In this document: one piece after another, positions 10,120-47,578 of the stretch
How positions within the stretch are numbered: position 1 is the stretch's first letter
How the letters are laid out: each line of letters opens with the position of its first letter
Virus record (IMG/VR): IMGVR_UViG_3300029305_002733
Location: 1-64,000 of that record
Source of the DNA: a virus
Taxonomy: Duplodnaviria > Caudoviricetes
Direction: 5' to 3' (one strand)
DNA length: 64,000 bases
Position numbers and translations under genes: made by a program
The notes under the pieces: model-generated
What the model saw: the letters and a program-made list of their open reading frames with translations, nothing else
Database searches by the model: none
What the model was told of the DNA's origin: nothing

Positions 10120-11528
10120 TTTCTATCTTGTACAACTCACTTCATCAATATCTGTCCAAATAATTAAATCACCGTCTGCATCGCAGCCAAATCCATTAAA
10201 TCTTCCAACATAATTGCCTTTTCCTTCTACGGAAGCAACGATATATATATTTTTTTCTCTTAATTTATTTTCTATTTCTCTCATTTCTGCTATTGTCATC
10301 ATTAATTCCTCCTTTAAACTAGGCTAATACTCCCAATGTCCATATGCAAAACTTCCTAAATATCTACCACAGTTTTTGCAATATAAACTATATTCAACTT
10401 CAACAAAGACACCACCAATATCTTCCTTATAAATATTTCTCTGCTCCGTTTCTTTACAACCACATTCACAAGTTAATGGTAAATCTTCCATTTTTAATCC
10501 TCCACCAAATCTGCTTTCTATTTTTTGAACTTTTCATAATCAATAAGCTCGAACTCGTCATATACATTTGGAATAAAGATTCCTACCCAAAAATTATCTT
10601 GCGCATTCTGCCTATATATAATTGTTTCATTCCATTCCTGAACTTCATCAAGAACTTCTTTACTCAATAAACCAAATTCATCTTTACAAGCATCACTTTC
10701 AATCTTATATACAATTGCTTTATATGTTTCTCTCTGTTTTTCAAGATCAGCATCTAAAGTTACATAATTCACCATAATTATCAGTAATAAAACGGCAGTT
10801 ATAATTCCTGATATAGTTACCACGAAAGAACCAATATCTTCCCAATGGTAATCTCCATAAATCGTAACTAATACTCCAACAATTAATAAAATAACAAAAA
10901 TCCAAAATATCATATTTACTTACCTCCAAATCAAATCTGTTTTCTATTCATGGTACTCTGTCATCTTTGCTACTTCTTCGTTACTGAAACTCCACTGCCA
11001 TTCGTGATAAAAATCATCAATTACTGTTTTGTTATCAACAATTCCAACATCAACAGATAAAATATTGTTAAGTGGATACATTGTTCCATTATTATCCAAA
11101 ATATAACCTTGGCTAATTATGTCGCATCTTCTATCATCTTCAACATTAATTCTGTCATAATCTAACCACTTAGAACGGTAGCCGATATGCTTCTCGCCGT
11201 CTATAGTAGTAAATACAACTCCGGTTTTAACCAAGGTCATTGTCTTTGGCTTTTTATCTTTTTTCTTCCAAAACATATTTTCACTCCCGACCAAATTTAT
11301 TTTTTATTTTGTCTCCATTCCCATATTTAAGCAGCACCATCCACCAGTCCAGAACAAGATACTACCTACCCACCATTGCCAAGTTGTTATCTGATACCCT
11401 ATTGATGGAAAGAACATTCCTACTAGAGCACAGATAATCCACCATCCAATTGTATATATTTTCTTTCTACTTATTTTTTCTCCCAACCAAATCTCGAATT
11501 TATTTCTTATGTCCAATATACTAAACAA
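10120..11528 (-). CDS. five small ORFs (~10123-10300, ~10320-10490 Zn-finger-like, 10518-10913 membrane, 10944-11276, 11304-11528 membrane)
   Basis: SD-led ORFs; hydrophobic N-terminal segments in 10518-10913 and 11304-11528. Confidence 0.65.
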
Positions 11529-11579
11529 AACCTCATATTCTGTTTAGCATATTGAACGTTACAATTTAATTATATCTAG

Positions 11580-13262
11580 TTAGACTGTTTTAAAAATGTT
11601 AACCTCTTCCATTAACTCGTTTGCAGTATCGGCAACTCTATTTGCTTTATCAAGAATCTGTTCAATAGTTGCTGCCTGCTGTTCTATATTGGCCATTGTT
11701 TCCTGTGTACTTGCACTATTCTCTTCGCTAATAGCTGATAAATTAGAAATAATATCTACAATCTCAGCAATATTCTTATTAATGATTTCAATCATTGAGT
11801 TAATACCATTCACTCTATCAACTGTATTATTAATATTTTCACCAAGAGAATTAAATACATCATAAGTTTCATTGATCTTCTGACTCTGATAATCTACATT
11901 GGTTGTAGTATTCTTCATACTATCTTCAATCAGATTATAATTCTTATTTAAATCCTTAAGAATCTTTTCAATTGCCTCGGAAGAATTTGCAGACTGAGTA
12001 GCAAGTTCTCCGATACTAGATGCTACAACACTGAATCCTCTACCCGCTTCACCGGCACGAGCTGCTTCAATATTTGCATTCAGAGATAATAACTTAGTCT
12101 GATCAGCAATTTCCTTAATTACATTTACTGCATCTTGAATCTTTTCTACGCTCTCACTGGTAATGCCAACCTGAGTATTCATGTTCTGAACATCTCTTAC
12201 AATCTCATTATTAGCTTTCTTTAAACCATCAAGCACGGTCATTGCTGTATTTTTTACTGCATTCATGTCCCTAGCAACACCATCGAGTTCATTGGCATTA
12301 ATACCAATCTTATTTAATTCGTCTGCTACACTACCGACCATCAGAGTTGCGTTACTTGTTTCTTCTGCCTGTGAATTTGCACCCTGAGCAACATCTGTAA
12401 TTGCTTTGGCAATTTCATTAGAAGCATTATTTGTAAGTTCCGCAGATGATTTTAAATTTTCAGCAATATCATTAAGTGTATCAACGGTTCCTTTCGTAGT
12501 GTTCATCATTATATTTAACTGTGAAACAAGATTAGCACTAACATTGTTGATGGTTTCAATTTCGTCTTTTGGATTTTCATATATCTCATAAGTATTAGAC
12601 AAATCATTCATAGACAAATCATTTACTACCTTATTGGTCTTTACTAATTTTAATCTAATTTTTCGAACGCGGAAAAGCACAAAAGCACTAATAACAAGCA
12701 CTACTCCAACTCCAACTTTAAGCATAGTCACCATTGTATTTATAATCTCACCATCTACATTGGAAGCAGGCTGTCCTGCAAAGATAGCTCCTACACATTG
12801 ACCGTCCTTCATTACCGGCTCATACCATGCGTAATACTTTATACCGTTTACGTTTGCATCCTTAGCAGAATAAATTTCGCCACTCTGTAATGCTTCATAT
12901 ATGCCATCGTCTATTTTTGTTCCAATAGCATTTGGTATTGTAGAAAACTTTCTAACCAAAGTACGTTCTTCTTCATCATAAGCAAATATCGTTATATCTG
13001 ATTCATTTACTTCTTTAAAATCTTCAAGCAAATCGGTTACTACTGCCATTTTTGTGTTATCTGCCGACATTAAAGCTGTTTCTTGAATAATGGCATATGT
13101 AGAAAGTCTTAAATATTCCAGCATGTCATTTTTCATAGTCTTACCAATCATAAGGGCACACACACCAACTGAAATAAAGGTTGTTATCATTGCTGGGGCA
13201 GTAGCATATGCTATGATTGCTGCGCCCAATGTATGAAGCCACTGTTTAATTTTTTTAATCAT
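11580..13262 (-). CDS. methyl-accepting chemotaxis protein with a Cache-type extracellular sensor
   Basis: Two TM segments around a Cache-like domain ([21 protein letters not shown]); hairpin-tip signature [27 protein letters not shown]. Confidence 0.93.
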
Positions 13263-13271
13263 AAATCCTCC

Positions 13272-14171
13272 TTATCCAAACACATTGTTTTTAATTTCAT
13301 CTAGTTTAAATGGGATGTAATATGAAAACCCATTATTTTCGTTACAAGTATATTCAAAATTAGAATAACTCTGTAATTTATCTGGTGTAGCTTGTGCTCT
13401 ATAACAAGTGTCTTTAACCGGACATTCATTACTAGTGCACATAGTCACGTCTGGCATTTTTAATCCTCCTCCTTTGTTGATTCTTCCTGTAATCTTCTTC
13501 TAAATTCTCTTTCGGCCATTGACATACCTTGACCTAATGCCCCAATATCTAAGATACATTTAACGTTATATTCCTTTAAGAGTTCAACAATAATTTGTTC
13601 ATAGATTTCATTTGCTCTCTTCCATGTTATAGTTGGATATTGAAGTGCCAAATAAAATAATCGTCTTGGGACATAATACTGAGCATTCATCATATGATTA
13701 TAAAATTCTTCATTAGTAATACAAGACACCTCCAATCAAAAGTTGTTTTTATTGTATAGTTTTAATTATGCGTAGTTCCCTTTATTTTTAAAGGCAAGGA
13801 AAAATTTCCCTGCCTTGGATACAAAGGCTGAACTGTTTCTTTTGTTCACACCTATACAATAACACTACTTTTTAATTTTGTCAAGTATCTAATTGCATAT
13901 TTTTTAATTATGCGTAGTTAAGAACATTAAGAATGATTGGATAGCCCTCTCCGTAATAGAAACTATCATTATATGATACGAAATCCACTGCTTCTTCATA
14001 GTCCATACCTTCCTTCTCAATAAGCCATTCAATCATTTTGTCATAATCGTACACTGCTCTGTTGTCATTAGTAACACCGATGAAGGCATCATCATATGAT
14101 GGATTCTCATAGATGATAACATCTTCATAGCCATAATCTTCAATCATCTCTCTGGCTTTCATGTGAATCAA
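13272..14171 (-). CDS. three small hypothetical ORFs (13272-13457 Cys-rich, 13460-~13700, 13908-~14162)
   Basis: ORF track; SDs for the first two; DDAFIGVT..AVYDYDKMI pattern typical of phage small proteins. Confidence 0.65.
13856..13884 (-). promoter_or_regulatory. sigmaA promoter TTGACA-17-TATTGT with extended -10 TG, between operator motifs 13903 and 13761
   Basis: tgtcaa 13879-13884, acaata 13856-13861. Confidence 0.7.
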
Positions 14172-14185
14172 AATCTCCTTTTATT

Positions 14186-16438
14186 TTAGTTGTTATTCTC
14201 AAGCATCATCCATGTATTTCTCTTATTATGACTTGTGCGAATACACTGTAAAAACGCCTGTGGTTCTGCTAATAATAAGCATCTCTTCTTTGCTCTAGTT
14301 AACATTGTATACAGCATACAGTTATCAAGAAGCTGATAATGTGTATTATCAATAATTCCAATTACCGTCTTTCTACCGGCACCTTGAAGCTTATGTGTTG
14401 TCATTGCATAAGCAAGATCTAAAACACCAAGATCTTTCTTTGTATATTCAATCTGCTTAGTTCCAAGGACACTATCATTAAAAGTAACAATACAATACTC
14501 TTCTTTTTTCTTACCATCATAACGTTCATCAATTGTGGTTATACATCCAATTTCTCCATTAAAGACATTCTTATCATAATCATTAACAGTTTGCATAACT
14601 CTTGCACCAAGCTTAAAAGTCATGTTGTAATTGGAAATACTTTTCTTTTCATTTGCAAGCAACTTATCTTGAATAATTTTATTCAGTTCAAAGGTACTAT
14701 TAAGACAATCCTTTTTTCTTGGAACCGCAATAACCACATTATCTAATCCATCTGTTTCAACTGATTTTAAAAATGTCTTTACTGCAATATCAAAAAGAGA
14801 CTGTCTGTTATCTCTAAACATATAGAACATATCCTGTAATTCACCATGTACAATTTTTGGTGCTACCTTTTCAGAAATCGGATTTATATTTTCACGGATT
14901 AAATTAGCATCTACTAAGATACCACTCTGTTCTGCCTGTCTCATTGGTTTAATCAATTTGCTTACAACAGAATCATCTAACATCTCAATTAAATCTGAGA
15001 AAACATTGCCAAATCCAATTGGAGGGAGCTGCTTATGATCACCGGAAATAATAATTCTCGTATTATCGCTAATCGCCTCTAGCCAATGCAAAAACAAACT
15101 TGCATTTACCATACTTCCTTCATCAAGAAAAGCAACATTTACAATCATCTGATTATCTTTATTGAAAGTGAATTCATTAAAACCCATACATCCCAATGTT
15201 CTATGAATTGTCATCGCTGGGAATGATGTCGCTTCAGTAATTCTCTGAGCCGCCATTGCTGATAACGCAGATGCCGCAATCGAATAACTATTTTCTTGAT
15301 AGGCCTTTATGATTGCTCTCATAATAGAGGTTTTACCAGTACCGGCCTTACCGGTTATTAAACTTACCGTTCTATTTAAACTGTTCTTAATTGCTTCTAA
15401 CTGTTCTGGAACATAGGTAAAGCCTTGTTCGTCCTCGGCATGCTTGATTGCTTTTTCAATTTGTTCATCAGTTAACTTGATAGTTGTACTAATCTTTGCT
15501 TTAGCAAAAAGTAATTCAAAGATTTTCATTTCAATATCATAGTAGTACTTTAACCCGATTTTACCATCATTCATGTGTAAGAACTCATTGTTTTCAAACA
15601 ACCAATCAACTTTGTCTGCACATTCTGGAACGTTGTTACTAATTGCTGCTCTTAAAATACTTTCAGAAACCCATGTGTGACCGTTACTTTCTCCAAGTTC
15701 ACGAAGATGATATCTTACAAAAGCAACCAATCTTTCAGTAGAATTGACAAGGTGTGGTTTTAATTTTAACGCTAAATCATCTGCCTTTTTAAATCCAATA
15801 CCGTCAATTTTACATACAATCCAAGGATTATCTTCAAGTTGCTGTTTGAGCAATGCAGGATTAGGTTCATCCGACAATAGCTTTTTAATCATCGCATATG
15901 TAACCCCTAATGGTTTTAACATTGTAATAATATCTGAAATAAGATAGTTATTCATGATTTTATCCTTAATCTTATTCCAAGTTGCCTCTCTAACACCTTT
16001 AACCCTGTCATAATCAATAACCTTTAATTTGCCATTTACAACATCTGATACTACATTTGGATATGCCTCTATCAAATTTTCTGCAATTGTTGGATGAATT
16101 AAAGATTGTAAAAACAATAATTGTGACTCCCTACTCTGAGGAAGAATGGCATATACAGATACAGGAACGTACTGATGTCCATATGTTTTGTCACATTTAT
16201 ATTTTGCTTTAACAAGATACTCTCCACCAACAATTAACTGTTGCATCTTACCGGCGAGAGTACAAATCTTCTTTGCAGGTGATTTTGTTTTTCCATCAAA
16301 GAATGGATCTGCCGCAACCTTTTGACAATATGGGATATCATCTTCTGTGGAGAATCCATAAACTCCCCACAGCGATTCATCAGAATACCATCGTTCTCCA
16401 GTAATGGTTACTTTAAATTCAAAAATTTCATCATCCAT
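14186..16438 (-). CDS. recD2: RecD2/TraA-family SF1B helicase
   Basis: ITGKAGTGKTS Walker A, LDEGSM, GDHKQLPPIG, YAMTTHKLQG, YTMLTRAK; N-terminal HhH-like region. Confidence 0.92.
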   Translation of the reverse strand: MDDEIFEFKVTITGERWYSDESLWGVYGFSTEDDIPYCQKVAADPFFDGKTKSPAKKICTLAGKMQQLIVGGEYLVKAKYKCDKTYGHQYVPVSVYAILPQSRESQLLFLQSLIHPTIAENLIEAYPNVVSDVVNGKLKVIDYDRVKGVREATWNKIKDKIMNNYLISDIITMLKPLGVTYAMIKKLLSDEPNPALLKQQLEDNPWIVCKIDGIGFKKADDLALKLKPHLVNSTERLVAFVRYHLRELGESNGHTWVSESILRAAISNNVPECADKVDWLFENNEFLHMNDGKIGLKYYYDIEMKIFELLFAKAKISTTIKLTDEQIEKAIKHAEDEQGFTYVPEQLEAIKNSLNRTVSLITGKAGTGKTSIMRAIIKAYQENSYSIAASALSAMAAQRITEATSFPAMTIHRTLGCMGFNEFTFNKDNQMIVNVAFLDEGSMVNASLFLHWLEAISDNTRIIISGDHKQLPPIGFGNVFSDLIEMLDDSVVSKLIKPMRQAEQSGILVDANLIRENINPISEKVAPKIVHGELQDMFYMFRDNRQSLFDIAVKTFLKSVETDGLDNVVIAVPRKKDCLNSTFELNKIIQDKLLANEKKSISNYNMTFKLGARVMQTVNDYDKNVFNGEIGCITTIDERYDGKKKEEYCIVTFNDSVLGTKQIEYTKKDLGVLDLAYAMTTHKLQGAGRKTVIGIIDNTHYQLLDNCMLYTMLTRAKKRCLLLAEPQAFLQCIRTSHNKRNTWMMLENNN

Positions 16439-27154: not shown

Positions 27155-27229
27155 TTTATATATTCCTTTCTTTTAATAAAATATTGTTTTCATTTAATTA
27201 TGCGTAGTTTGAATAATTAAAAAAATTAT

Positions 27230-28813: not shown

Positions 28814-30499
28814 TTATTTTCTAAATGTAAACTGATTTGTCAGTTCACTTAAAGATACAGATTGTGCTGATAACTCTTCACTTACTGCGGAAGTTTCCTC
28901 TGCTGTAGCAGAATTGCTCTCTACTACTGCTGAAATCTGTTCAACATTTGTTTCAATTTCTTTAATCATATCTGTCTGCGTCATAAATGCTTTCGCCATA
29001 TTACTAGCAGTTACTTCAAAATGTTCCATGTCTGCAATGGTCTGTTCCATAATCTTAGTTGTATTCTCTACAATCTTATTACCATTCTGAATTTCCTGAA
29101 GCGACTTATTGATTAAGTCTTTTGTCTTTACTGCTGACTTTGCACTATCTGCGGCAAGCTTACCAATCTGATCAGCTACAACAGCAAATCCACGTCCAGC
29201 TTCACCAGCTCTTGCTGCTTCAATCGAAGCGTTTAAGGATAAGAGGTTCGTCTGAGAAGCAATGTCTTCAATGTCTGCGATAATATCTTCAATTTCTTTA
29301 GAAGTATCAGTAATTCGTGTCATCGCATTAGTTAACTCAGATGCTTCAACCTTACCTTGTTCTGCCGCAAGTACCGCTGTCTTTACATTATTAACTGTAT
29401 CTGTTGCTCTGTTTGTACTTTCTACAGAAATATTTGTAATATTTTCAATCGTTGTAGATAAGCCCTTAATGGCATTTGCCTGCTCAGTAGCACCTTCAGC
29501 AATTTCTTGTGCTCCATGTGCCAACTGCTCTGCACCGGTAGATACCTGATGCACTACCCGATTAATATTATTTAATGTCTCACTCTGATTTTCTGCCGTT
29601 ACTTTTACATCATTGATAATCTTCTTAAATGCACCAACATATAATGCTTCATTCTTAGAATTTACATTAAAGTTGCCATTCTTCAATTCATCAAGAACAT
29701 AAGATAAATCAACAATAATTGCCTTTAACATATCACATGTTCTTCGGAAAGAATTTGCTAAATCTCCAAGTTCGTCAACAGCTTCGTATTTAATCTCAAC
29801 ATCTAAGTTGCCTAATGTTAATTGTTCTGCAACACCTTTAATCTCTTCTACTGGATTTTTTACCATTTCAATTAAGATGTTCACAGCTCTAACAGTAATA
29901 ATGATACAGGAAATCAACATGGCAAATAAGAATAACGTACTTGCAATAGTTGTATTACGTGCCATTCTATATTCGTTTGCCGCATCTGCTTCTGCTTCAT
30001 GGCCAATATCATCTAATAATGTTTGTAATTCATTAACAACGACTTCATAATCACCTACATATAACATAATTCCGCCAACTTTATCACCGGCATCTACATA
30101 ATTAATAATTTGTTGATGCATAGTTAAGAAGCTTTCCCATAATTTATCAAGCTCTTTAAGCTGACTTTTGTTATGATATTTTTCATTTAACTTCACAATA
30201 TTCTCTTCGATGTTTTCAATTGCTGTCGCAACCATTCTCATATGTTCTTCAATCTGAACTGGGTCACTTACAGATACCGCCCATAACATATGCTTACCTG
30301 CGTACTGTAAGTCTTTTCTCATTTCCAACTGAATAACCGAACTGGTATACGATTCGTTGTAGAATGTTTTAAATTGTTTTGCTGAAATTGTAGAACCTAA
30401 AACATTCATAAAAAGAGCAAAAGTAAATACGAAAATAATAATGTTCATTACTGTTTTAATTTTCTTACCAACCGTTAGCTTTTGTAAATGCTTTTTCAT
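28814..30499 (-). CDS. methyl-accepting chemotaxis protein with 4-helix-bundle sensor and HAMP domain
   Basis: Two TMs, HAMP ([24 protein letters not shown]), [27 protein letters not shown]. Confidence 0.93.
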
Positions 30500-30517: not shown

Positions 30518-30720
30518 TAGTATGAAATTATTTGATACCGTTACTGAAAACTTATAAAAAATTATAAACTTTTATGTTTCATTCCTACTTCAATGTGTAT
30601 GCTTTCGACGATATAAATATCAGTCTACTCACAAGTTCTTGTACACTCCATAGGCGTAAATTCCTGGCTAACGCATCAGTACATATCTGCATTAACTTGA
30701 AAGTGTTATGCTACAGATTT
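30518..30720 (-). ncRNA. predicted TnpB omegaRNA/right end (scaffold ending ...AGTTTTCAGTAACGG at 30538; putative guide TATCAAATAATTTCATACTA)
   Basis: Directly 3' of tnpB; ends in AACGG, resembling IS607-type right ends as recalled; TTATAA repeats near the end. Confidence 0.6.
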
Positions 30721-31887
30721 TTCTAAAAACATTTCTCCATATCTTTTCAGATTTAAACTTGCTTGATAATCTCTGTCAATTACGTTGCCACATTCACACT
30801 TGTAAATGCGGTCACTAAGTTTTAAATCCTTTTTGATATTTCCACAACAACTACACAATTTAGAACTTGGAAAGAATCTATCTGCAATAATTACAGGAAT
30901 ATTATTCCATGCAGATTTATATTCAATTTGTCTCCTAAATTCTCCAAAACACTGTTGTTGTACTGCCTTAGATAAATGTTTATTCTTCATCATCCCTTTG
31001 ACATTCAAATCTTCTAACACTATATAAGATGGTTTGGTTTTCACTATCTCAGTAGTTGTTTGATGTAAATGATTCTGACGAATATTCGTTAGTCTGTGAT
31101 TTAATTTTAAAAGTTCTTTTTCTCTTTTTATAATGTTACTTGTTTTGCAGTAACCTCCTCCTTTCTTATTCTTTTCATATCTTCTTGATATGGAACGCTG
31201 TAACCTGCGTTTTCTTTTTTCTAATTTCTTTACTTTTTGAGTTTTATTGATATTTTTATAAGTTATTTTGTCTGAGCATATTGCTAAATCTTTAATTCCT
31301 AAATCAATTCCAATACCATCATTAGATGGGCGAGAAGCAGAGTCTTCATACTCAATACCAACTGTAATCCACCAATTAATTCCATCATACTTAATACGAG
31401 GATTCATGTATTTTGCATTTGCACTTGGTATACGACCATGTTCAGCAAGTTTAATCCAATTCAATTTTTGCTTATTCTTTTTCTTAGAAGTAGCAAATCC
31501 TTCAACTTTTACATGTGTATCTGTAAATTGTATTTTTACATTGTCTTGATAGAATTTTGGTACTGAATGTTTTCTACTTTTGAATCGTGGAAACTTTGTA
31601 TATCCTTTGAAGAAATCTCTATATGCTTCGCAAGCGTCTTTTATAGCTTGTTTTGTTACATTATTTGAAATGTTATTTAACCATGCATAGCCAGATGTTT
31701 TCTTTAACTGCGTAAACTCTTTTCTTAAATCTCCATCAGATATAAATTTTCCACCATTTTTGTAATTTTCTTGTTCTCTTGCTAATGCCCAGTTATAAGC
31801 AAATCTTGCAGTATTAGCATATTGAAATAGTTTAGTTTTTTGTTTGTTATTTGGTAATAGCATTACTCTTATTGTTTTTATCATCAT
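30706..31887 (-). mobile_element. tnpB: solo TnpB RNA-guided endonuclease (IS200/IS605/IS607 superfamily), no tnpA
   Basis: HTH N-terminus, GIDLG (RuvC I), LEDL (RuvC II), CSCCG..CECG Zn finger, DRD (RuvC III); start placed at ATG 31887 after GAGGTG SD. Confidence 0.92.
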
Positions 31888-31917
31888 CTTCACCACCTCT
31901 CATCCTTTTATGAGAAA

Positions 31918-32790: not shown

Positions 32791-32985
32791 ATGTAATGTG
32801 CAGTAGCAATATTATTTTGATTTGAGAGGAGGTACGTTGCTACTGCACCTTAACTAAGAAAGGAGGCTTCTTCAATGTACAAAAGAGAAGAACCATTACG
32901 AATCTTAGATGTAAGCTTTTTCATCACTACTATTTAATTATGCGTAGTTTAGAGATTTTTTTAAGTTCCTTATTGGAACATCTTT

Positions 32986-36483: not shown

Positions 36484-37173
36484 TTATTCACTCTTTTGGT
36501 TTAATTTTGTCCAGTTATACCATCCATACAGACAGTTGATTGTCCATGCAATATACATCGCAACCATAGACCAGTTGCCATCAACAAACCACATCTTCAA
36601 ACATAAAATATCAATTGCTAACCACCAAATCCACTGCTCTCTATAACCCTTAATCATTAAAAGCTGTGCTACAATTGCAAATACATTTGTTGCTGCATCT
36701 GTATATGCCTGCTGACTATTAATAAGAGTTAATGCATATCCAGTACCCATTGTTAATGCACCGGTTACAGCTCCGGATAAAAGCCACTGTTTAACTGTAA
36801 ATTTCTTCGCCTTAACCTGAGTAGAACCATCGTCATTCTTATTCATGTTCTTTTTCCAAATGAAAATACCCCAAATCATAGTTACAAGATAAAAGATATT
36901 CTCTAAGAACTCACCGTAAAACCTTGCTTCCCATGTAAGCCATAAACAAATACCAGTCTGCACAAATCCAATAAAGTAAAAACTCAACTTTCCCTTTGCA
37001 CAAAGTACTACAGAAATTGTTCCTGCAACACCTGCAATCATACTTAACCAAGAGTCCGGAGCAACTACAAATACTGCAATCTGTAATACAACCATAGAAA
37101 TCATAAATAACTTTTCAAATACGTTATATCCTACCCAAAATTCATTCAATAACCAATTCTTAATTCTTTCCAT
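36484..37173 (-). CDS. pnuC: PnuC nicotinamide riboside transporter
   Basis: Multi-pass membrane; VVLCAKGKLSFYFIG, YTDAAT..AQLLMIKGYREQWIWW, INCLYGWYNW. Confidence 0.92.
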   Translation of the reverse strand: MERIKNWLLNEFWVGYNVFEKLFMISMVVLQIAVFVVAPDSWLSMIAGVAGTISVVLCAKGKLSFYFIGFVQTGICLWLTWEARFYGEFLENIFYLVTMIWGIFIWKKNMNKNDDGSTQVKAKKFTVKQWLLSGAVTGALTMGTGYALTLINSQQAYTDAATNVFAIVAQLLMIKGYREQWIWWLAIDILCLKMWFVDGNWSMVAMYIAWTINCLYGWYNWTKLNQKSE

Positions 37174-38281
37174 TTTCAATAATCTCCCTTACATAATTTA
37201 CTACCGCCATAAAGTTCTCATAATATGTACCGTCAAGGATAGTAACCTTATCCCAATCCCCAACATCAATTAAACTCTGTTTTAAGATTTCGAATAATTC
37301 CTTACGTTCTTCTAAGCCAGAATGATTCATAAATCTTACACCATCATCTACAAATACACCATGTGGCACTACGCAGAAAATCTTATCCCAACGACTTTTC
37401 TTTGCATATTCATATGCCACAGGTTTAATTTTTGTTTCATAATCTTCAACTGTAAGTAAGCACGTAGGATCTTTTGCATAGTACTGTGCATACATATTTG
37501 TTACCAAAGAATCTGTATCTGCAAAGAATACACCATGATTCCCTGGGGAATTAATTTCCTGACGATTATGATTAAACTGTCCATCCAAGAATGCCAAGAA
37601 ATCCGCTGCATCTAATTCCCAATCTGCTACGCAGCTCTCTTTCATATAATCTCTTGCCCATTCATGGCTATGTGGCGCATTGAAATATTTACCAAGGTCA
37701 ATTACCATAGTAGATTTACCTTCGGATGCGGTACCGGTAATTAAAATATTTGTACTGAAAACTCTTCTAAATGGAAAGGTTATCTTATCCCAATTCTTAA
37801 TTGGATTCTGTCTAATCATTGTTGCACAGATTGGATTGTCTGCAACCCGGTCAACAAGAACTGCGTCTTCATTCCACATATTAACTAGGTCTGTATAGTA
37901 ATTCTCATCTCCTACATACCAGGTTCTTTTATTTGGCCAACTCATATCAACTGCTGTTTCATAAATTCTTTCAAATTCTTTCATCCAGCCTGGCCATCCA
38001 TCTGGATAATTACTGATACCAAGTTCAGAATCATTAATTGCATACACAGATACTAAATCATCATCTGCAAAGAATTCTCTTACATAACGATATCTCTTGG
38101 CATGTGGCATAAGAGGCTCCCCTTTATCACCCTCAAATCCACAAACAATAACTAATGCTCCGCCGGCATTTTCTTTTTTAGCTCTCATAATCAAATCAAG
38201 ATGCCCCTGATGTAACGGAGCAAAGGAACCAAATACGACTCCAACCTTCCCTTTTAATGGTTTCTGATAAGCGTGTAACAT
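37160..38281 (-). CDS. nadR: NadR-type bifunctional NMN adenylyltransferase / ribosylnicotinamide kinase (no HTH)
   Basis: FGSFAPLHQGH (HxGH), ICATMIR, ITGTASEGKST P-loop, HEWARDY, FADTD. Confidence 0.92.
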   Translation of the reverse strand: MLHAYQKPLKGKVGVVFGSFAPLHQGHLDLIMRAKKENAGGALVIVCGFEGDKGEPLMPHAKRYRYVREFFADDDLVSVYAINDSELGISNYPDGWPGWMKEFERIYETAVDMSWPNKRTWYVGDENYYTDLVNMWNEDAVLVDRVADNPICATMIRQNPIKNWDKITFPFRRVFSTNILITGTASEGKSTMVIDLGKYFNAPHSHEWARDYMKESCVADWELDAADFLAFLDGQFNHNRQEINSPGNHGVFFADTDSLVTNMYAQYYAKDPTCLLTVEDYETKIKPVAYEYAKKSRWDKIFCVVPHGVFVDDGVRFMNHSGLEERKELFEILKQSLIDVGDWDKVTILDGTYYENFMAVVNYVREIIENGKN

Positions 38282-38302
38282 TATTTATACTCTCCTTATA
38301 AA

Positions 38303-40273
38303 CTAATTAATCATTTCTAAATAATCCTGCTCGGATATAATCTTGCAGCCCACTTGCTTTGCCTTGGTGTTTTTGGAAGAACTACTGTTTACGTCATTAT
38401 TTATGAGATAATTGGTCTTAGATGTTACAGAACTCACATACTTTCCACCATGTTCCTCAATATCACTAATTAAAGCATCACGGTTCTTAAATCTTTCTAA
38501 TGAACCGGTAATGCAGAAAGTGGCATTATTTAAACTCTTACCATTATTTTTATTATGCGTAGTTTCAACAATAAAATTAAATTCCTGCTTCAGTGCTAGG
38601 AATTCAATCCAATGTTTGTTCATCCAACTAACTAATGATTCATACATTGCCTGACCAAAACCTTCAATCTTGGTAAACTGCTTTGCCTTACCGGTACTCA
38701 TAATTTCACAGAACTTTTCAATATCTCCGTTACAGAACTTTGCAATATCTTTACTTACTGTACGGCCAATAAGTGGAATGGATTGTGCGCAAATGAAACG
38801 CTCGGCCGTAGTTGTTCTAGACTTTTCAATTGCTTCTCTTATTTTATCAACAGACTTTTTCCCAAAGCCCGGAGTTGCAACCCATTTCTGGTATACTTCT
38901 TTATAGAATGGAATCCTATACAAATCCTTAATGGACTTCACTTCTAGCTCTTCAATCATATATTCAAGTGTTGCTTCCGAGAGTCCGTCGATATCCAGTG
39001 CATTCTTACTTACCGCATTACACAACTTACCAAGCAACTTACCCTGACAGTCTTCGTTGCTGCACATCAGAACTTTAGTATCATTGTCCTTTACAATCTT
39101 GGTTAATCCACCACAAATCGGACATACATCTGGAAATGTAATTGTATTACTTCTTGTAAGATTATCTGCAATTTGTGGAATTATCATATTTGCCTTATAT
39201 ACAGTAATTGTATCTCCAATACCTAATTCAAGTTCCTGACAAAGACTCCAGTTGTGCACGGAAGCTCTTTCTACAGTTGTGCCTTCAATTTCAACCGGAT
39301 TGAAAATCGCTACCGGACAAAGACAACCTGTTTTACCCATGCTCCACTGGATTTCCTTTAAAGTAGTTTCATAAACATCATCCTTAAACTTAAATGCTAT
39401 CTGGGATCTTACGTGATGCCCCGTCATTCCCAAAGACTCTCCATAGGCCACATCCGAGTATCCGAAAACGACTCCATCTATTGGATATCCCTTTCCTTCA
39501 GCAGCTCTTACCAAATCATTGATAATATTCTGAATCTCATCTCTGGAAGAACCTTTTCCCACCTTGAGATAAGGAACCACTTCAAATCCAAGAGCGTTTA
39601 ACTTGAATAGTCTTGTGCAGAAATCATTATCTTCCATTCCCTTAATAACTTTCCATGCGACAAACTTAAGACCTCTCTGCTTTGCAATCTTACTATCGAG
39701 CTGGCGAATTGAGCCGCTTGCTAAGTTACGTGGGTTCTTATATTTTTCATCTGCCGGTAAACATGCGTTAATTTTCTCAAAAGTTGGATAGTCAATAATC
39801 ATTTCTCCGTCCACAATCAAGTCATCATAAGAAACTCTCAAAGGAATATTGGTAACTACCTTGGCATTATGCAGAATATCCTCACCAATTTCACCCGTCC
39901 CGCGTGTCTCTGCGCCAATCAAATCTCCATTATATTGGAGTGAGCAGGTTAGGCCATCCATCTTTAACATCGCTATTCCATCATGGTTTTTAAAGAAATT
40001 AACAATATCATCTACACTCTTTGTCTTATCAAGTGATAACATCGGATGATTATGTTTAATTTTATTCAGTTCAGACTTTACTTCATAACCAACAGTTTGC
40101 GTTGGACTATTACTCATGTAAACACCGGTTTCTTTTTCCAACTCTACCAGTCTATCAAACAATCTGTCATATTCCTGATCGCTTACACTCGGATTAGATT
40201 TATTATAATACTCGTCCCGGTAAATATTTAACTGCTCCACTAACCGCTTCATTTCATTGATTTTTTCATTCAT
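38303..40273 (-). CDS. ligA: NAD+-dependent DNA ligase
   Basis: YY..NPSVSDQEYD, LKMDG, TRGTG, KNPRNLASG, DGVV, C4 Zn finger, C-terminal BRCT; start placed at MNEKINE. Confidence 0.96.
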   Translation of the reverse strand: MNEKINEMKRLVEQLNIYRDEYYNKSNPSVSDQEYDRLFDRLVELEKETGVYMSNSPTQTVGYEVKSELNKIKHNHPMLSLDKTKSVDDIVNFFKNHDGIAMLKMDGLTCSLQYNGDLIGAETRGTGEIGEDILHNAKVVTNIPLRVSYDDLIVDGEMIIDYPTFEKINACLPADEKYKNPRNLASGSIRQLDSKIAKQRGLKFVAWKVIKGMEDNDFCTRLFKLNALGFEVVPYLKVGKGSSRDEIQNIINDLVRAAEGKGYPIDGVVFGYSDVAYGESLGMTGHHVRSQIAFKFKDDVYETTLKEIQWSMGKTGCLCPVAIFNPVEIEGTTVERASVHNWSLCQELELGIGDTITVYKANMIIPQIADNLTRSNTITFPDVCPICGGLTKIVKDNDTKVLMCSNEDCQGKLLGKLCNAVSKNALDIDGLSEATLEYMIEELEVKSIKDLYRIPFYKEVYQKWVATPGFGKKSVDKIREAIEKSRTTTAERFICAQSIPLIGRTVSKDIAKFCNGDIEKFCEIMSTGKAKQFTKIEGFGQAMYESLVSWMNKHWIEFLALKQEFNFIVETTHNKNNGKSLNNATFCITGSLERFKNRDALISDIEEHGGKYVSSVTSKTNYLINNDVNSSSSKNTKAKQVGCKIISEQDYLEMIN

Positions 40274-40414
40274 AATCTTTTCCCTTTCTTGCAATTTTTC
40301 AGCTATGCAAAAGTTTTTTTCACATAGCTGAAAAGTTTTTTCACTCATTGAAAATTTGTATGTAGTTTGTTTCGTTATCTTTTTCAGATACTTCCATTTT
40401 AATTATATCTAGTT

Positions 40415-40711
40415 TTAAAGCTTTGTAATATAAATGTTTTCGTTCTTTAGATGAATCTGATATTCGTTCTCAATTTCATCGTAAAAAATCTCAATTCCGT
40501 CAATTTCCCGGATGTTTAAGATACAACCCTCTCCCTCAATATAAATTTTTTCATCAAAATTGTACTCATACGGTATAAAAGAATAAACTGATACACTACT
40601 GTTATTCTCTTGACATACACTAATCTGATTTTCTCCCTCTACCGCATTCATAATCATGTTAATAAACTGCTGCATTTCTTCTATACCTCCATTATTATTA
40701 TTCATACTCAT
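40415..40711 (-). CDS. hypothetical protein with its own promoter (TTGACA 40733-40738, TACAAT 40710-40715); true start likely ~40673
   Basis: GGAGG SD near 40686; operator motifs at 40747 and 40398 bracket the gene. Confidence 0.6.
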   Translation of the reverse strand: MSMNNNNGGIEEMQQFINMIMNAVEGENQISVCQENNSSVSVYSFIPYEYNFDEKIYIEGEGCILNIREIDGIEIFYDEIENEYQIHLKNENIYITKL

Positions 40712-40834
40712 TGTAAAATATTATTCCCTTTTTGTCAACTATTTTATTTAATTTCATCTAGTTACTGCTATTTTTCACCAAACTGACATACATTTTTCAC
40801 TACTTGAAAATTAATTGAGAAAAATACCTAGCTA

Positions 40835-41779
40835 TTATGCCAGGTATTTTTCATATTTTTCATAGAACGCACCTTTACTTGGAATCCTACATCCAAATTG
40901 CTGCGTAATCTCTTTTGTATGTTCGAAAATAAATTCTTTGCAACTTATACCAAGTTCTTCACTCCTCTTCTTAATAAAAGCAATTCTTCCACTTTCATAA
41001 AAAGCATTTCCTTTTATATAATCAGAAATTCCAATAGCTGACGCACATCGTACAATTCGATTATATAATCTCCGGCCTGCACGATATTCATCATCACTAC
41101 GAAGTGTATTTGGATAATTCTTTATTATTAAATCTTCTTTTTGTAAATTTATCGGAGGTTTTGTGTCTCCATAAGGATAATAAAATAATTCTTCATCAGA
41201 CTGTATAGCAAGGTTATATAACTCTTCACTTACTTGAATTGTTCTGCCAGTACATAAAGTAACTTTGCCATCATGAAAATCTGAGAGTTTTAAATTTGTC
41301 AATTCCTTATATTGTTCTCCTTTAATTCCCTCAAATAAAGCCAAAAACATAAATCCGTCACTTGGATTATTAAGCTGTCTAGCCCAAGCAAGCACTTGTT
41401 CTCTGGTAACAATTTTCTTATCGTTCACTATATTGTTTATACAAGACATAAAAATGTCTTTATTAATTTCTATAAAATGATTCTGTGCATCTGCTACTAA
41501 ATTCTGTTCCAAACACCATTGAGTGTATAATGATAAATGACTATTACTAACCTGTAATACTTCATAGGAAGATTCATTCCATGTTTTATACATATTCACG
41601 ATTTCATAATACGTAAAACTACTTACATCTTTCCCTAATTCAGTTTCAAACTTTTCTGTTTTACTAAACAGTCGTTCTAAATAACCATTTGCCATAATTG
41701 TAGAGTCTATTTTAAATTCTATATATCTCGATTTTATATCATTATTATACATTTCAGCCATATTATTGTACCTCCTCAA
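40835..41779 (-). CDS. catalytically inactive tyrosine-recombinase-fold protein, YopR/MrpR-like master repressor candidate
   Basis: MYNNDIKSRYI start, SAM-like N-terminal region, ALFEGIKGEQYKELTNLKLSDF in place of box I, no HxxR motif; third gene of the trio. Confidence 0.7.
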   Translation of the reverse strand: MRRYNNMAEMYNNDIKSRYIEFKIDSTIMANGYLERLFSKTEKFETELGKDVSSFTYYEIVNMYKTWNESSYEVLQVSNSHLSLYTQWCLEQNLVADAQNHFIEINKDIFMSCINNIVNDKKIVTREQVLAWARQLNNPSDGFMFLALFEGIKGEQYKELTNLKLSDFHDGKVTLCTGRTIQVSEELYNLAIQSDEELFYYPYGDTKPPINLQKEDLIIKNYPNTLRSDDEYRAGRRLYNRIVRCASAIGISDYIKGNAFYESGRIAFIKKRSEELGISCKEFIFEHTKEITQQFGCRIPSKGAFYEKYEKYLA

Positions 41780-43007
41780 ACAATTTATCTAAATCGTTAG
41801 TTAATGTTTTACCAAGTTTCTTAGCTGGCTGTAACTTTGCTTTATTAATTCTATCAATTCTAGTAGTTATACCGGATATATATTTCTCAAATTTATTTGC
41901 ATCATCAATACGAGAAAATACATATAATGTAATCAACATATCTACATAAGAATACTTTTTCATTCCATAATCAATATTTGACATAATTAAAGAGTTAAAC
42001 TTATTTTTAACTTTCTGCATTACTTCAAAGTACAATTGATTTTCATTTGTTCCTTCGGAGCCTTGACAGAAGAAATAATCTAACACCTTAATAAATTCTG
42101 ATCTAGATAACTTACCGCCGGTATTATTGATTTCTCCAAAAAGTCTAAAAGATGTATCCTTATTTAAATCTTGGGCAACTCTATTTGCTACACCATAAGA
42201 ATACATCGCCTTTTCATCAATTTTCTTCATTTCTGTCTTCTGGGATTCTTGATAAACAAAGTATTTCGCTTTGTCCTCAGAGAATTTTACAATTCGTAAC
42301 TCCCATGGATAGTTTACATCTGGATTCATATCTTTTTCACGACACATAGACACGTATCTGTGATAACCATCAGAAATATCAAAATACTTTAACGAACCTA
42401 TTACAAGTGCGCGTTGTTCTTTGTCATAATAAAAATCAAATTCTTCCGGAGGAATATTTAATGTAATAGCTGTAGGAATATACTCTTCTTTCTGTAAGCT
42501 TTTTCTAATTCCCGTAATTGTCTTTTCATTTTGAGTAATTTTCCATTGTTCACCATTTCGTGTCATTACTCGTGTTAACGCTCTCTGAGCATTGATATTG
42601 TAATTTATCATCTGCGCTCTTCTTAAGTCCATAAAGAAATTTGTATCCGTAGCACCAATCCATTGATCATCAGCTACCTGAATACATGGGATAACAAGAG
42701 GAAATTTTATTTCATCCTTTGGAAGCTTCATCTTTGAAAAATTTTCAATTTCAATTTCAGTAAAGAAACTCTCCAAGACATTCTTATCATTAGTAATTTG
42801 TATAATTCCGTCTAGTAAACAAAATAAAACATATTCGGTCTGCTCTGCAAGTTTAGCTCTAGCAATCATATCTGTTGCTGTGCCAGTCGGAATTTCGTAC
42901 TTCTCATACATGTAATCAACAACTTCGCTTGTTTTCTTTGCATTTAATGCAATCTTTTCACATTCATGTAACAAATACTTTTCTAATACTTCTCTATCTT
43001 TCTTCAT
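41763..43007 (-). CDS. YopQ-like protein with DGQHR/DndB-like (ParB-superfamily) motif
   Basis: INYNINAQR, PTAITLN, DISDGYHR; lies between recombinase and repressor-like genes. Confidence 0.7.
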   Translation of the reverse strand: MKKDREVLEKYLLHECEKIALNAKKTSEVVDYMYEKYEIPTGTATDMIARAKLAEQTEYVLFCLLDGIIQITNDKNVLESFFTEIEIENFSKMKLPKDEIKFPLVIPCIQVADDQWIGATDTNFFMDLRRAQMINYNINAQRALTRVMTRNGEQWKITQNEKTITGIRKSLQKEEYIPTAITLNIPPEEFDFYYDKEQRALVIGSLKYFDISDGYHRYVSMCREKDMNPDVNYPWELRIVKFSEDKAKYFVYQESQKTEMKKIDEKAMYSYGVANRVAQDLNKDTSFRLFGEINNTGGKLSRSEFIKVLDYFFCQGSEGTNENQLYFEVMQKVKNKFNSLIMSNIDYGMKKYSYVDMLITLYVFSRIDDANKFEKYISGITTRIDRINKAKLQPAKKLGKTLTNDLDKLFEEVQ

Positions 43008-43033
43008 AACGCAGAACCTCCTTCTCTTGTTTA

Positions 43034-43065
43034 ATATTACCATATACTTTTAATTTTGTCTAGTG
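43034..43065 (-). promoter_or_regulatory. promoter TAGACA-17-TAATAT with the operator motif overlapping the -35
   Basis: tgtcta 43057-43062, atatta 43034-43039, motif 43049-43065. Confidence 0.6.
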
Positions 43066-43085
43066 TTAGTTTAAACAAAAATATA

Positions 43086-44099
43086 TTATGATTTTCTTAT
43101 TGTAATTTTTGACATAATATTTGCCGCCTTTTGGCTGTTAACATCTTCTTGGCCTCGAATATAATTCTCAGTTACTTTTGGGCTACTATGTCCCATCATT
43201 TTTTGTACAAAATATACATCTTTTGTACTATCATATAACGCTGTTCCATAACTAGCTCTAAGTTTATGAGGAGTAATGTTCTTACCCTTAATGCCTTCTG
43301 CATATTTTTTTACAACTTTAGCAACGGCACCGGAACACATTCTTTCTCTTCGATTAGCTATAAATAATGCGCTTTCTTGTTTTCCTTTTAAAAGGATATC
43401 TCTTTTTTCAAGCCATTCATAAATATAAACCATTAATTCATCAGACAAATCGAAGGTTTTAATGTGGTCGCCTTTATCAATTACTAATAATTTTTGATTT
43501 TTAAAATCAATATTTTCTAAATCTAATTTGCATAACGCAGTACATCTAATTCCAGTATTAAGAAACAATAAAACAATAAGCAAATCTCGCTCTTTCCATT
43601 CCTTTTGTCTGTTTTTAGATCTTTCTGACCCGCTTCCCTTTTCAACCGCAGCAATGTACTTTTTAATTTCTTTAGTGTCCATCCAGCCTTTGTTTCTCTT
43701 TTCAATAGTTTCAGTACTTTCTTTAAACTGTGGTCGTTGTACATGTGCCATTGGGTTCGATTTATTTTTTTCACTAGCATACAAATATTCAGAGAATTTT
43801 TTCAATGCAGAATACATGGCAATCTGATAAGAGACAACGTTGTTTTCGTAATTATTCAGGAAGGAAGTATAATCATCAAGATTGACATCGGAAACATCTT
43901 TTTTATTCCAATCCATGAACTTAACAACAAAACGGATGTAATCGTATTTCGTATTTAAGGATGTACGAGTACCCATAAAATTCTTAAAACCAATCAAATA
44001 TGGCTTATCAGTGTTTTTGTTTATTAGATTATTAATTTTCTCATTCTTTTTTCTTTCAACAATTTCATTCCCGTTCATCTTACTTTCCCTCCTTGTCAA
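43086..44099 (-). CDS. tyrosine recombinase/integrase (YopP-like), catalytic residues intact
   Basis: NTGIR (R), DKG (K), HKLR (HxxR), MGHSS (H), TENY (Y); likely start ATG ~44078. Confidence 0.93.
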   Translation of the reverse strand: MTRRESKMNGNEIVERKKNEKINNLINKNTDKPYLIGFKNFMGTRTSLNTKYDYIRFVVKFMDWNKKDVSDVNLDDYTSFLNNYENNVVSYQIAMYSALKKFSEYLYASEKNKSNPMAHVQRPQFKESTETIEKRNKGWMDTKEIKKYIAAVEKGSGSERSKNRQKEWKERDLLIVLLFLNTGIRCTALCKLDLENIDFKNQKLLVIDKGDHIKTFDLSDELMVYIYEWLEKRDILLKGKQESALFIANRRERMCSGAVAKVVKKYAEGIKGKNITPHKLRASYGTALYDSTKDVYFVQKMMGHSSPKVTENYIRGQEDVNSQKAANIMSKITIRKS

Positions 44100-45040: not shown

Positions 45041-45106
45041 TTATTAAATTATCCTCCTTATAAACAAAATTATCTTGCATCAAAGTAGCAACACTCCTTT
45101 CATTTA

Positions 45107-45135
45107 ATTATATCTAGTTTACCAACAAATGTCAA
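45107..45135 (-). promoter_or_regulatory. perfect sigmaA promoter TTGACA-17-TATAAT with the operator motif overlapping the -10
   Basis: tgtcaa 45130-45135, attata 45107-45112, motif 45103-45119. Confidence 0.85.
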
Positions 45136-46024: not shown

Positions 46025-46783
46025 CTACGCTGCATTATAATTTTTATCATTTCTAATATCAACTTTATACTTGTATAATGCATTATACACTTGCTCAGGA
46101 ATTATTTCCTTATATTCATCTGCAACTTGCTTTATGTACTCTTCTTTTGCTTGGGCATATACTTCATAAGCATCCATAACTGTATCATAAACACCAAGCT
46201 CCCTTGTGTTGTATTTTGCCAAATAGCCATTCCCTTGCTGAACAATACCATTTGGTAATCCTCTGTTGTTTGATTTGTTCATGAAAATCATACTAATTCT
46301 TTGTGGTATTACTAAGCACCTATTAGGAGCATATACTTTGTTACCAGGATACAGAATGTCTTTATCTACATGAAGTCTCTCATTAACATCATATTTATGA
46401 GCTTCATACCAATCTGCAAAAGTGTGAAAACATTGCCATTCACTACATACGGTTGAAGTTCCATAGTATGCTGGATATTTTTCTTTTTCCTTTTCGCCAT
46501 AGCAACGAGCAATAATTTCATGCCATATATTATATGTCCTTGATGTTTTATCATCTACTTTTGTTGGATGATCTCCAAGACCAATATAACCAACACCATG
46601 TACAATCCTATCATAAGGATTTTTTACTACGCCTCTTTTAAAGTTTTGATATGTTTGATGCTCTTTGATGTAATGGAATTCGTCTAAAAATTCAACATCA
46701 ATATCTGCACTATTTTCATATCTAATAATTCTCATTGGCGTTCCTCTTGTGTTTCTATTTATTTCATATAATCTTTCGTTCAA
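46025..46783 (-). CDS. HNH-like homing-endonuclease-type protein, paralog 1
   Basis: GTPMRIIRY..DIDVEF, TYNIWHEIIARCY, VCSEW..F..W, HVDKDIL..NKVYAPNRCLVIP. Confidence 0.75.
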   Translation of the reverse strand: MNERLYEINRNTRGTPMRIIRYENSADIDVEFLDEFHYIKEHQTYQNFKRGVVKNPYDRIVHGVGYIGLGDHPTKVDDKTSRTYNIWHEIIARCYGEKEKEKYPAYYGTSTVCSEWQCFHTFADWYEAHKYDVNERLHVDKDILYPGNKVYAPNRCLVIPQRISMIFMNKSNNRGLPNGIVQQGNGYLAKYNTRELGVYDTVMDAYEVYAQAKEEYIKQVADEYKEIIPEQVYNALYKYKVDIRNDKNYNAA

Positions 46784-46828: not shown

Positions 46829-47578
46829 CTATGCTGCCATCAAATTCTTATCATTTCTAATATCTACTTTGTATCTAAGCATAGCTTCATAAACATGTTC
46901 TGGTATCATATCTTTGTATTCTTCAGCTACTTGCTTAATATGATTCTCTTTTGCATTAGCATATGCTGAGTATGCACCTTCTAAAGAATCAAATATACCA
47001 AGTTCTACAAGATTGTATCTCGAAGAATATCCATCTCCCACCTGCATAACTCCATTCGGCAATCCTCTTTTATTCTCTTTATTGGTAAAGAGCATATTAA
47101 TTCTCTGAGGAACTAATAAACAAGTGTATGGAGAATAGATTTTATTTCCCGGATAAAGAATATCCTTGTCCAAATGCAATCTGCCTTCGCATTCATACTT
47201 ATTTGCATCAAACCAATCAGCAAATGTCTGATAACATTTCCAATCTTCACAAACGGTACAAACATCATAATAAGCTTCGTAAATGTCTGAACGTCCTTCT
47301 TCGTAGCATCTGCCAATCATATCGTGCCATGCATTATATGTACGCACTCTTTTATTATTAATCTTTGTTTGGTGTTTTCCTACGCCTAAATACCCGATCC
47401 CGTATACAGACTTATCATATGGATTTTTCATATTGCCCTTTTTAAAATTCTGATATACTGCATGTCTTACGACATAATTATGATCATCCATGAACATAAC
47501 ATCAATATCAGAACTACTTCCATAACGGATAATTTTCATTGGCGTACCATATCTATTGTAATTTATTTCTCCTAACAA
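46829..47578 (-). CDS. HNH-like homing-endonuclease-type protein, paralog 2
   Basis: Same motifs as the neighbour over the full length; shared upstream TTTTATGAAAGGAGT and C-terminal YKVDIRNDKN..AA. Confidence 0.75.
   Translation of the reverse strand: MLGEINYNRYGTPMKIIRYGSSSDIDVMFMDDHNYVVRHAVYQNFKKGNMKNPYDKSVYGIGYLGVGKHQTKINNKRVRTYNAWHDMIGRCYEEGRSDIYEAYYDVCTVCEDWKCYQTFADWFDANKYECEGRLHLDKDILYPGNKIYSPYTCLLVPQRINMLFTNKENKRGLPNGVMQVGDGYSSRYNLVELGIFDSLEGAYSAYANAKENHIKQVAEEYKDMIPEHVYEAMLRYKVDIRNDKNLMAA

Follow-up and report, generated by a model that had tools for sequence, protein, structure and literature searches.

A phage-encoded chemoreceptor with a predicted formate-type sensor from an uncultured lineage of large phages

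The viral record IMGVR_UViG_3300029305_002733 (Duplodnaviria; Caudoviricetes) is a linear metagenomic fragment of 83.6 kb, estimated to be ~55% complete, and the stretch of DNA analyzed here, referred to as the window, is its first 64 kb (64,000 nucleotides). On the minus strand of the window, at positions 11580-13262, lies an open reading frame (ORF) for 560 amino acids plus a stop codon that encodes a methyl-accepting chemotaxis protein (MCP), hereafter MCP1. As read from the sequence, its ATG sits 4 nt 3' of a Shine-Dalgarno sequence, AAGGAGG (13267-13273, minus strand), which overlaps the stop codon of the 61-amino-acid ORF upstream. The protein scores well above the cut-offs of 2 Pfam families, MCPsignal (PF00015; 113.2 bits against a cut-off of 34.6, residues 350-510) and sCache_3_3 (PF17202; 55.1 bits against 28.8, residues 76-173). 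Residues 123-558 also match phrog_8572 (E = 5e-37), a PHROG family of phage MCP-like proteins without an assigned function.

An earlier note, made from the letters of the window alone, had read this gene as a complete receptor in which a Cache-type sensor between 2 transmembrane (TM) segments is joined to a signaling domain with an intact hairpin tip, and Pfam, hydropathy, an AlphaFold2 model, and a canonical tip all agree with that description. From the N-terminus, and all on the minus strand, the protein consists of TM1 (residues 12-43; 13134-13229), an extracytoplasmic sCache_3_3 sensor (residues 44-171; 12750-13133), TM2 (residues 172-203; 12654-12749), a HAMP-like linker (residues 204-250; 12513-12653), and a cytoplasmic signaling hairpin (residues 251-560; 11583-12512). 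The limits of the 2 TM segments come from hydropathy. The full-length AlphaFold model (predicted local distance difference test score, pLDDT, 83.9) has the layout TM-Cache-TM-helix-connector-long hairpin. In order, a helix (12-63) continues from TM1 into the sensor, whose alpha/beta core spans 72-165, and a second helix (166-217) leads out of the sensor and through TM2; a 16-residue connector and one long helical hairpin (234-554) follow. The topology of the linker in the model, a helix, the 16-residue connector, and a second helix with a DEIE motif, together with conserved NDL…DEIE residues, suggests a HAMP-like element; NDL and DEIE are conserved in relatives, and NDL and the DE residues are invariant.

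The signaling hairpin belongs to the 44-heptad (44H) class by its tip distances, with 155 amino acids from the tip to the C-terminus (~22 heptads per arm) and 202 from the end of TM2 to the tip, values that Lachnospiraceae MCPs share. The tip-to-C-terminus distance is 154-155 amino acids in 184 of 226 relatives. Among solved structures the best match to the hairpin is Thermotoga maritima TM1143 (2CH7; E = 2.4e-15), a cellular receptor from an unrelated organism (also 3JA6) that has a similarly long hairpin and a similar tip, the likeness being limited to the signaling domain. The tip of MCP1 (residues 385-425; 11988-12110, minus strand), delimited by invariant columns among relatives, is invariant or almost so across 78 relatives, and over a wider stretch (residues 375-435) the identity to every group of relatives, viral or bacterial, is 59-69%. 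The unusual residues S416 and G418, which we take to be the equivalents of Tsr E402 and R404, raised the possibility of an altered or defective tip; this was rejected, as E/Q and S/Q/R/G/K are found at these positions in chromosomal Lachnospiraceae MCPs. A pattern search with the methylation consensus [ASTG]xx[EQ][EQ]xx[ASTG] found 3 heptad-spaced sites in the C-terminal arm, E513/E514, Q520/E521, and E527/Q528 (11670-11738, minus strand). These begin at residues 510, 517, and 524, the first being a strict 10-mer match, and E514, A517, and A524 are conserved in relatives. MCP1 is an intact receptor, in the length class of the receptors of its candidate hosts.

The sensor was also modeled separately (residues 40-182, with an alignment of 68 sequences), and this AlphaFold2 model has a pLDDT of 95.4. 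The top 5 Foldseek matches of the modeled sensor are all chains of 8PY0 and 8PY1, both formate complexes (probability 1.0, E = 1.7e-7), and 4 of these 5 chains align over ~105 columns with ~24% identity and a root-mean-square deviation of 1.7-2.0 Å. A profile of the sensor matches 8PY0 at E = 1.6e-17 and 8PY1 at E = 1.7e-14. These structures are of the R6 sensor from Oscillibacter ruminantium (8PY0) and the R3 sensor from Asticcacaulis benevestitus (8PY1), which belong to the family of PacF and Atu0526 (PMC11804620). In these sensors formate is held by a salt bridge from an arginine (R118 in R3, R111 in R6, R142 in PacF) and is hydrogen bonded by a threonine (T105 in R3, T100 in R6) and a tyrosine (Y167 in R3, Y160 in R6) (PMC11804620). 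In a pairwise alignment with 8PY1, residues T91, R104, and Y147 of MCP1 align with T105, R118, and Y167 of R3, with a Thr-to-Arg spacing of 13 residues common to both sensors. Across 78 relatives, each of the 3 residues of this predicted ligand triad is conserved to at least 90%. T115 may correspond to PacF T158, judged by eye, as part of a GT motif that follows a loop shorter by 5 residues. On the basis of these models we consider it fairly probable that the ligand of MCP1 is formate or a similar small carboxylate. Among gut Clostridia, formate is the measured or predicted ligand of most chemoreceptor sensors of the sCache_3_3 family, and formate and lactate are the commonest attractant specificities (bioRxiv 10.1101/2025.02.11.637667).

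A survey of MCPs in related phages, proposed in the earlier note as a check, recovered relatives of MCP1 at no fewer than 104 loci in IMG/VR. Among them are 5 viral genomes that are 93-100% complete, with lengths of 210, 230, 206, 190, and 41 kb, the 190-kb genome having terminal repeats; each contains exactly one MCPsignal match and no CheW. In the 190-kb genome (L009), the MCP is found between RecJ and RecD2 and downstream of a helicase and a primase, that is, again within a replication module, and in L007 it lies beside an NAD ligase and 3 genes syntenic with positions 38303-44099 of the window. No partner gene adjoining the MCP is conserved across 7 phage loci. The L009 gene (9770-11164) encodes only 464 amino acids, with the end of TM2 at about residue 99; this protein seems to be without a Cache sensor and may be a sensor-less variant.

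Cellular relatives are more distant. In species-representative cellular genomes they are at most 35% identical and mostly from Lachnospiraceae, and the best matches in 401 Lachnospiraceae genomes, which were searched directly, are 36-38% identical. The 2 best Lachnospiraceae matches adjoin pyrimidine-biosynthesis, tRNA-synthetase, and phosphotransferase system (PTS) genes, and from these housekeeping neighbors we take them to be chromosomal. The genomes with the nearest chromosomal relatives encode CheW and CheA. The chromosomal sCache_3_3 MCPs of Lachnospiraceae (Roseburia, Butyrivibrio, Pseudobutyrivibrio, and Eubacterium) share their architecture and length class with MCP1 and have a tip that is 60% identical on average, but they are no more than 38% identical overall and 22% identical in the sensor, lie in housekeeping neighborhoods, and occur in genomes with 10-20 MCPs and che genes. 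Roseburia hominis has chromosomal predicted formate sensors of its own (bioRxiv 10.1101/2025.02.11.637667). The closest homologs of MCP1 are ~40-61% identical, and the nearest related DNA available is 44% identical to MCP1 at the protein level; a viral scan with patterns derived from MCP1 alone found nothing, and a metagenome scan gave only ~30%-identity relatives among the matches listed.

In a maximum-likelihood tree of 78 rows (IQ-TREE), MCP1 falls in a 31-row clade with a support of 97. Genomic context is known for 4 of these rows (this phage, L004, L005, and L006), all of them viral, and separate viral branches outside the clade are formed by L007 with L009 and by L016. Members of MCP1's own clade that were looked up come from metagenome sources only, whereas a chromosomal sub-lineage of the wider family is present in NCBI genomes. 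Mean sensor identity is 43% within the clade of MCP1 and reaches 58% to one phage copy (P0033), compared with the 22% to chromosomal copies. The best tree needs 3 host/phage switches, and an approximately unbiased (AU) test leaves a single phage clade unrejected (p-AU 0.232). These relationships indicate that the MCP1 family is shared between Lachnospiraceae and their large phages, and that the phage copies derive from the gene family of chromosomal Lachnospiraceae sCache_3_3 MCPs. MCP1 is not an isolated case of gene capture: related large phages have related copies, and this suggests that the gene is of selective benefit to the virus. The conserved ligand site, the conserved methylation sites, and the host-matched hairpin length are together consistent with a functional receptor that takes its place in host arrays.

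The surroundings of MCP1 are those of a phage replication module. Directly upstream on the same strand are genes for a DnaB-like helicase, primase, RecJ, Pol III alpha, and RecD2, and further phage genes on both sides of MCP1 include those for an RNA ligase, an NAD-dependent ligase, NadR, PnuC, and a radical-SAM protein. The record also contains a polynucleotide kinase, homing endonucleases, and 3 tRNAs. The possibility that host DNA was misassembled onto a phage contig, or that the border of a prophage was miscalled, deserves attention because the record, a linear fragment from a metagenome, is estimated to be 55% complete and because some MCP matches in GenBank "phages" are clearly bacterial contigs. 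Phage genes nevertheless flank MCP1 for tens of kilobases, and its composition is phage-like (GC content of 0.345 against a phage mean of 0.338±0.027, and GC at third codon positions of 0.253 against 0.275±0.045). A motif repeated throughout the window, described below, overlaps the stop codon of MCP1 and brackets its promoter, the identical protein is recorded on 9 contigs, homologs lie deep within complete phage genomes, and no searched cellular genome exceeds 38% identity. The phage-like base composition, the motif copies around the gene, and the 9 contigs make an assembly chimera very unlikely, so that a chimera with host DNA, which the earlier note had named as a finding that would refute its reading, is excluded as far as sequence allows and the artefact explanation is effectively refuted. 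All of this evidence indicates that MCP1 is genuine phage cargo situated in the replication module. The nearest GenBank phages by polymerase, at ~30-32% identity, are uncultured human-faecal fragments, Moorella phage MTATph1, and Brevibacillus phage Sundance, a distribution that places the phage in a distant, uncultured lineage. The host of this large gut phage is probably a member of the Lachnospiraceae.

The nearest promoter upstream of MCP1 is of the sigma-A type, TTGACA-17-TGn-TATTGT (13856-13884, minus strand), and was found in a promoter scan with 10 of 12 matches plus the TG extension. MCP1 is the third gene behind this promoter, after 2 small, tightly packed ORFs of 91 amino acids and 61 amino acids (together 13272-13735, minus strand; from the ORF listing and sequence reading), neither of which has a Pfam match or is conserved beside MCPs in other phages. 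No terminator-like sites were found on the minus strand across the scanned stretch of 10900-14300, which extends past MCP1. The 61-amino-acid ORF (13272-13457, minus strand) is Cys-rich, with the pattern CxxxCxxxxxC…C, and appears to be translationally coupled to MCP1. The leader contains a stable 11-bp hairpin (13790-13816, minus strand) with the stems AAGGCAGGGAA and UUCCUUGCCUU, set in a fold with an energy of -27.5 kcal/mol (z = -3.2). Since the sequence after it, UUUAAAAAUAAA, is not a U-run, the hairpin may be an attenuator or a processing site.

A 17-bp motif, AACTAnnnATAATTAAA, brackets the promoter. A motif search located one copy upstream of the -35 box (13903-13919), one in the leader downstream of the promoter (13761-13777), and one overlapping the stop codon of MCP1 (11565-11581), all on the minus strand, in agreement with what had been noted before about a motif-flanked promoter upstream of the gene and a motif at its end. 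The window contains 19 copies, against 0.24 expected, and all are on the minus (coding) strand; others are located, for example, at 78-94, 358-374, 27193-27209, 32933-32949, 45103-45119, and 63243-63259. In SPbeta, the recombinase-fold master repressor MrpR has as its operator a repeated element of about this length, which lies in promoter regions and marks repressed lytic promoters (PMC10516654). Like SPbeta with its MrpR and its element SPBRE, the phage studied here is a large Bacillota phage, repeats a short element in many of its promoter regions, and encodes a recombinase-fold YopR-like protein (43086-44099). The sequence of AACTAnnnATAATTAAA is apparently unrelated to that of SPBRE, and it includes a -10-like ATAAT.

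None of the che partners that were looked for, namely CheW, the CheA dimerization domain, CheR, CheD, and receiver domains, was found in the 83.6-kb, ~55% complete record (CheB and CheC were not searched for), which extends to the whole record the earlier observation that the window lacks che genes. MCP1 is intact, falls in the length class of candidate-host receptors, and has a similar tip and methylation motifs, and no che partners were found in the record, so that docking into host arrays is the natural mechanism. The anatomical part of the docking reading in the earlier note, according to which the phage could add a ligand specificity to host chemotaxis or bias it, is well supported by these features and by the 59-69% identity of the tip, while the functional part is what we infer from the anatomy and the models.

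How such a receptor might act can be set out as follows. The host-type promoter at 13884-13856 would drive the MCP1 operon, and the phage's own 17-bp motif, by analogy with MrpR and SPBRE of SPbeta, may keep the operon off in a prophage and allow its expression together with early lytic genes. MCP1 would then insert in the membrane and enter host receptor trimers through its conserved tip, making use of the CheA and CheW of the host, and host methylation enzymes could adapt it at the EE/QE sites. The infected cell would in this way acquire a response to formate, or to a similar small carboxylate, or have an existing one strengthened, and a likely benefit for the phage would be that the cell is steered to fermentation hot-spots rich in nutrients and new hosts. 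Taken as a whole, we lean, with confidence only slightly better than even, toward a genuine phage-encoded transmembrane chemoreceptor in which a formate-type sCache_3_3 sensor is combined with a 44-heptad hairpin matching those of motile Lachnospiraceae receptors and which works via host arrays in the course of infection. Infection by the phage probably alters what the cell swims toward. A further-reaching version, which we put forward tentatively and consider somewhat less than an even prospect, is that a lineage of large gut phages has long kept its own formate-sensing receptor and expresses it in infection, so that a cell that still swims follows rising formate concentrations to dense consortia of fermenters. 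If so, burst size could be larger and progeny would have better odds of meeting new hosts, the virus navigating with the motor of its host.

Several observations weigh against the receptor as pictured here or narrow what can be claimed for it. No Pfam HAMP match was obtained for MCP1 even at E = 0.1, nor for the isolated linker. In the sensor, MCP1 alone among 226 relatives bears a 4-residue insertion (VRKF; 12951-12962, minus strand; residues 101-104 or 103-106) in the Arg-bearing strand, which looks like a tandem duplication of this beta-strand of the ligand pocket. Because of the insertion, the identity of the pocket-facing arginine (R100 or R104) depends on the alignment; one MAFFT run puts R100 rather than R104 at the conserved Arg column, an arginine being present either way. 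S107 of MCP1 is a conservative stand-in for PacF T145; of the 56 clade rows, 42 have Ser at this position and 14 have Thr. Chromosomal sensors have 5 more residues than the phage clade in the loop that follows the Arg strand, so that the ligand specificity could differ. MCP1 thus has the sCache_3_3 family, the fold, the ligand Thr/Arg/Tyr, and the place of the sensor in a 2-TM MCP in common with the R6 (8PY0) and R3 (8PY1) formate sensors, but differs from them in its 19-24% identity, its phage origin, the shorter post-Arg loop, the insertion, and the Ser at PacF T145, and its binding of formate is a prediction.

The phylogeny and the regulatory region contribute to the same side of the balance. 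Of the 31 rows in the clade of MCP1, the other 27 are rows for which no context is known, and a chromosomal sub-lineage with a pyrimidine-biosynthesis neighborhood (L244, equivalent to the P0072 group) nests among the viral branches of the wider family, with L245 as sister to the whole group. A purely viral clade of 88 rows in a first FastTree analysis was dropped after the best chromosomal hits were added, when L244 fell inside it and L245 became its sister. The nesting of L244 within the wider family narrows the claim of a phage clade to the 31 rows; the comparison with host MCPs proposed in the earlier note therefore has a divided outcome, in that MCP1's own clade is viral wherever context is known (4 of 4), but the wider family is mixed. 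The host is assigned indirectly. The role of AACTAnnnATAATTAAA as a repressor operator is suggested by analogy with SPbeta, and its -10-like ATAAT means that it could be a phage promoter element instead of, or as well as, an operator.

Another use of a working formate-type receptor in host arrays would be lysogenic conversion, in which MCP1 is expressed from a resident prophage and the extra chemotactic sense benefits both host and prophage. Host-beneficial sensor cargo is typical of morons; the promoter of MCP1 is of the host type, and SPbeta-like lysogeny-type genes are present, including a recombinase-fold trio at 40835-44099 that matches integrase PHROGs. MCP1 is, however, without a promoter-to-terminator cassette of its own, being located inside a replication block behind a promoter bracketed by a phage-wide motif, and the analogous element in SPbeta marks repressed lytic promoters (PMC10516654). 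The YopQ-like protein of the phage (phrog_5732; 41763-43043, minus strand) had no match at E = 1e-10 in the 401 Lachnospiraceae genomes, a sample in which no integrated relatives of the phage were found, and relatives of MCP1 are carried by 190-230-kb genomes, at least one of which has terminal repeats. On this evidence we regard expression for the benefit of a lysogen as unlikely. The ligand would be irrelevant if MCP1 instead locked or disrupted kinase output as an array poison or motility switch, stopping or biasing flagellar rotation, perhaps so as to keep out superinfecting phages that depend on the flagellum, or to conserve energy. The finding of no che genes in the phage record fits such a role, as do the related L009 copy that seems to be without a Cache sensor and the presence of 2 different MCPs in one phage, which could simply raise receptor dosage. 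A mere poison, though, needs neither a ligand triad with at least 90% conservation nor the 3 methylation-consensus sites that have been kept, and it is the sensor that is conserved most specifically in the phage clade, at 43-58% identity there and 22% to chromosomal copies; we consider this role distinctly improbable.

MCP signaling domains also serve non-motility Che-like pathways, and formate could in principle be read by the phage as a proxy for host metabolism or community density, feeding a pathway for lysis timing or the choice between lysis and lysogeny. The position of MCP1 within a regulated early operon would suit a sensor of this kind. Against it, the record yielded neither a phage kinase nor an adaptor or receiver domain, no gene is conserved beside the MCP across the 7 phage loci, and the tip is conserved like that of ordinary array-forming receptors; we consider a phage-decision sensor very improbable. 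The reading that we prefer remains that of a receptor acting via host arrays during infection, its function being suggested by the sequence and the structural models.

MCPs are very rare in GenBank phages yet recurrent in large uncultured gut phages. Matches occur in 17 of 50,697 GenBank phage records, several of which look like mislabeled bacterial contigs, so the statement in the earlier note that MCPs are not a usual phage cargo holds for GenBank but needs qualifying for the large uncultured gut phages, in which they recur; phage MCPs also have a PHROG family to themselves, phrog_8572. In the literature we found no experimental study of phage-encoded bacterial chemoreceptors and only passing annotations, one of them in Nitrosospira phages (bioRxiv 10.64898/2026.05.02.722434), and the jumbo-phage surveys examined make no mention of chemotaxis. 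What is new here is a modeled sensor with a structure-based prediction of its ligand, formate, together with a traceable, mostly phage-borne clade. Auxiliary genes of phages are mostly discussed as metabolic boosters, and a receptor that redirects the swimming of the infected cell would, if true, be a behavioral takeover. MCP1 is unusually easy to test, as the ligand prediction is grounded in structure and published assays exist for this sensor family (isothermal titration calorimetry on the domain and chimeric receptors in Escherichia coli). That formate is one of the 2 commonest attractants sensed by motile gut Clostridia also makes MCP1 testable.

A second, unrelated MCP of 561 amino acids is encoded at 28814-30499 (minus strand), directly downstream of a TnpB gene (30706-31896), and consists of 4HB_MCP_1, HAMP, and MCPsignal domains. 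Like MCP1 it is a complete receptor without che partners found in the record, but its sensor differs (4HB as opposed to sCache_3_3), and the 2 proteins share no more than ~30% identity in the signaling domain, which points to separate acquisitions. Elsewhere in the window, genes for a PnuC-like transporter, a NadR-like adenylyltransferase, and an NAD-dependent DNA ligase are consecutive at 36484-40348 (minus strand), a row that matches the NAD+ salvage-and-use modules of gastrointestinal jumbo phages (PMC11662467). Two adjacent paralogs of ~250 amino acids each (46025-46783 and 46829-47578, minus strand) match one single gene, at ~41% identity, in several unrelated IMG/VR contigs (L040-L043 and L055).

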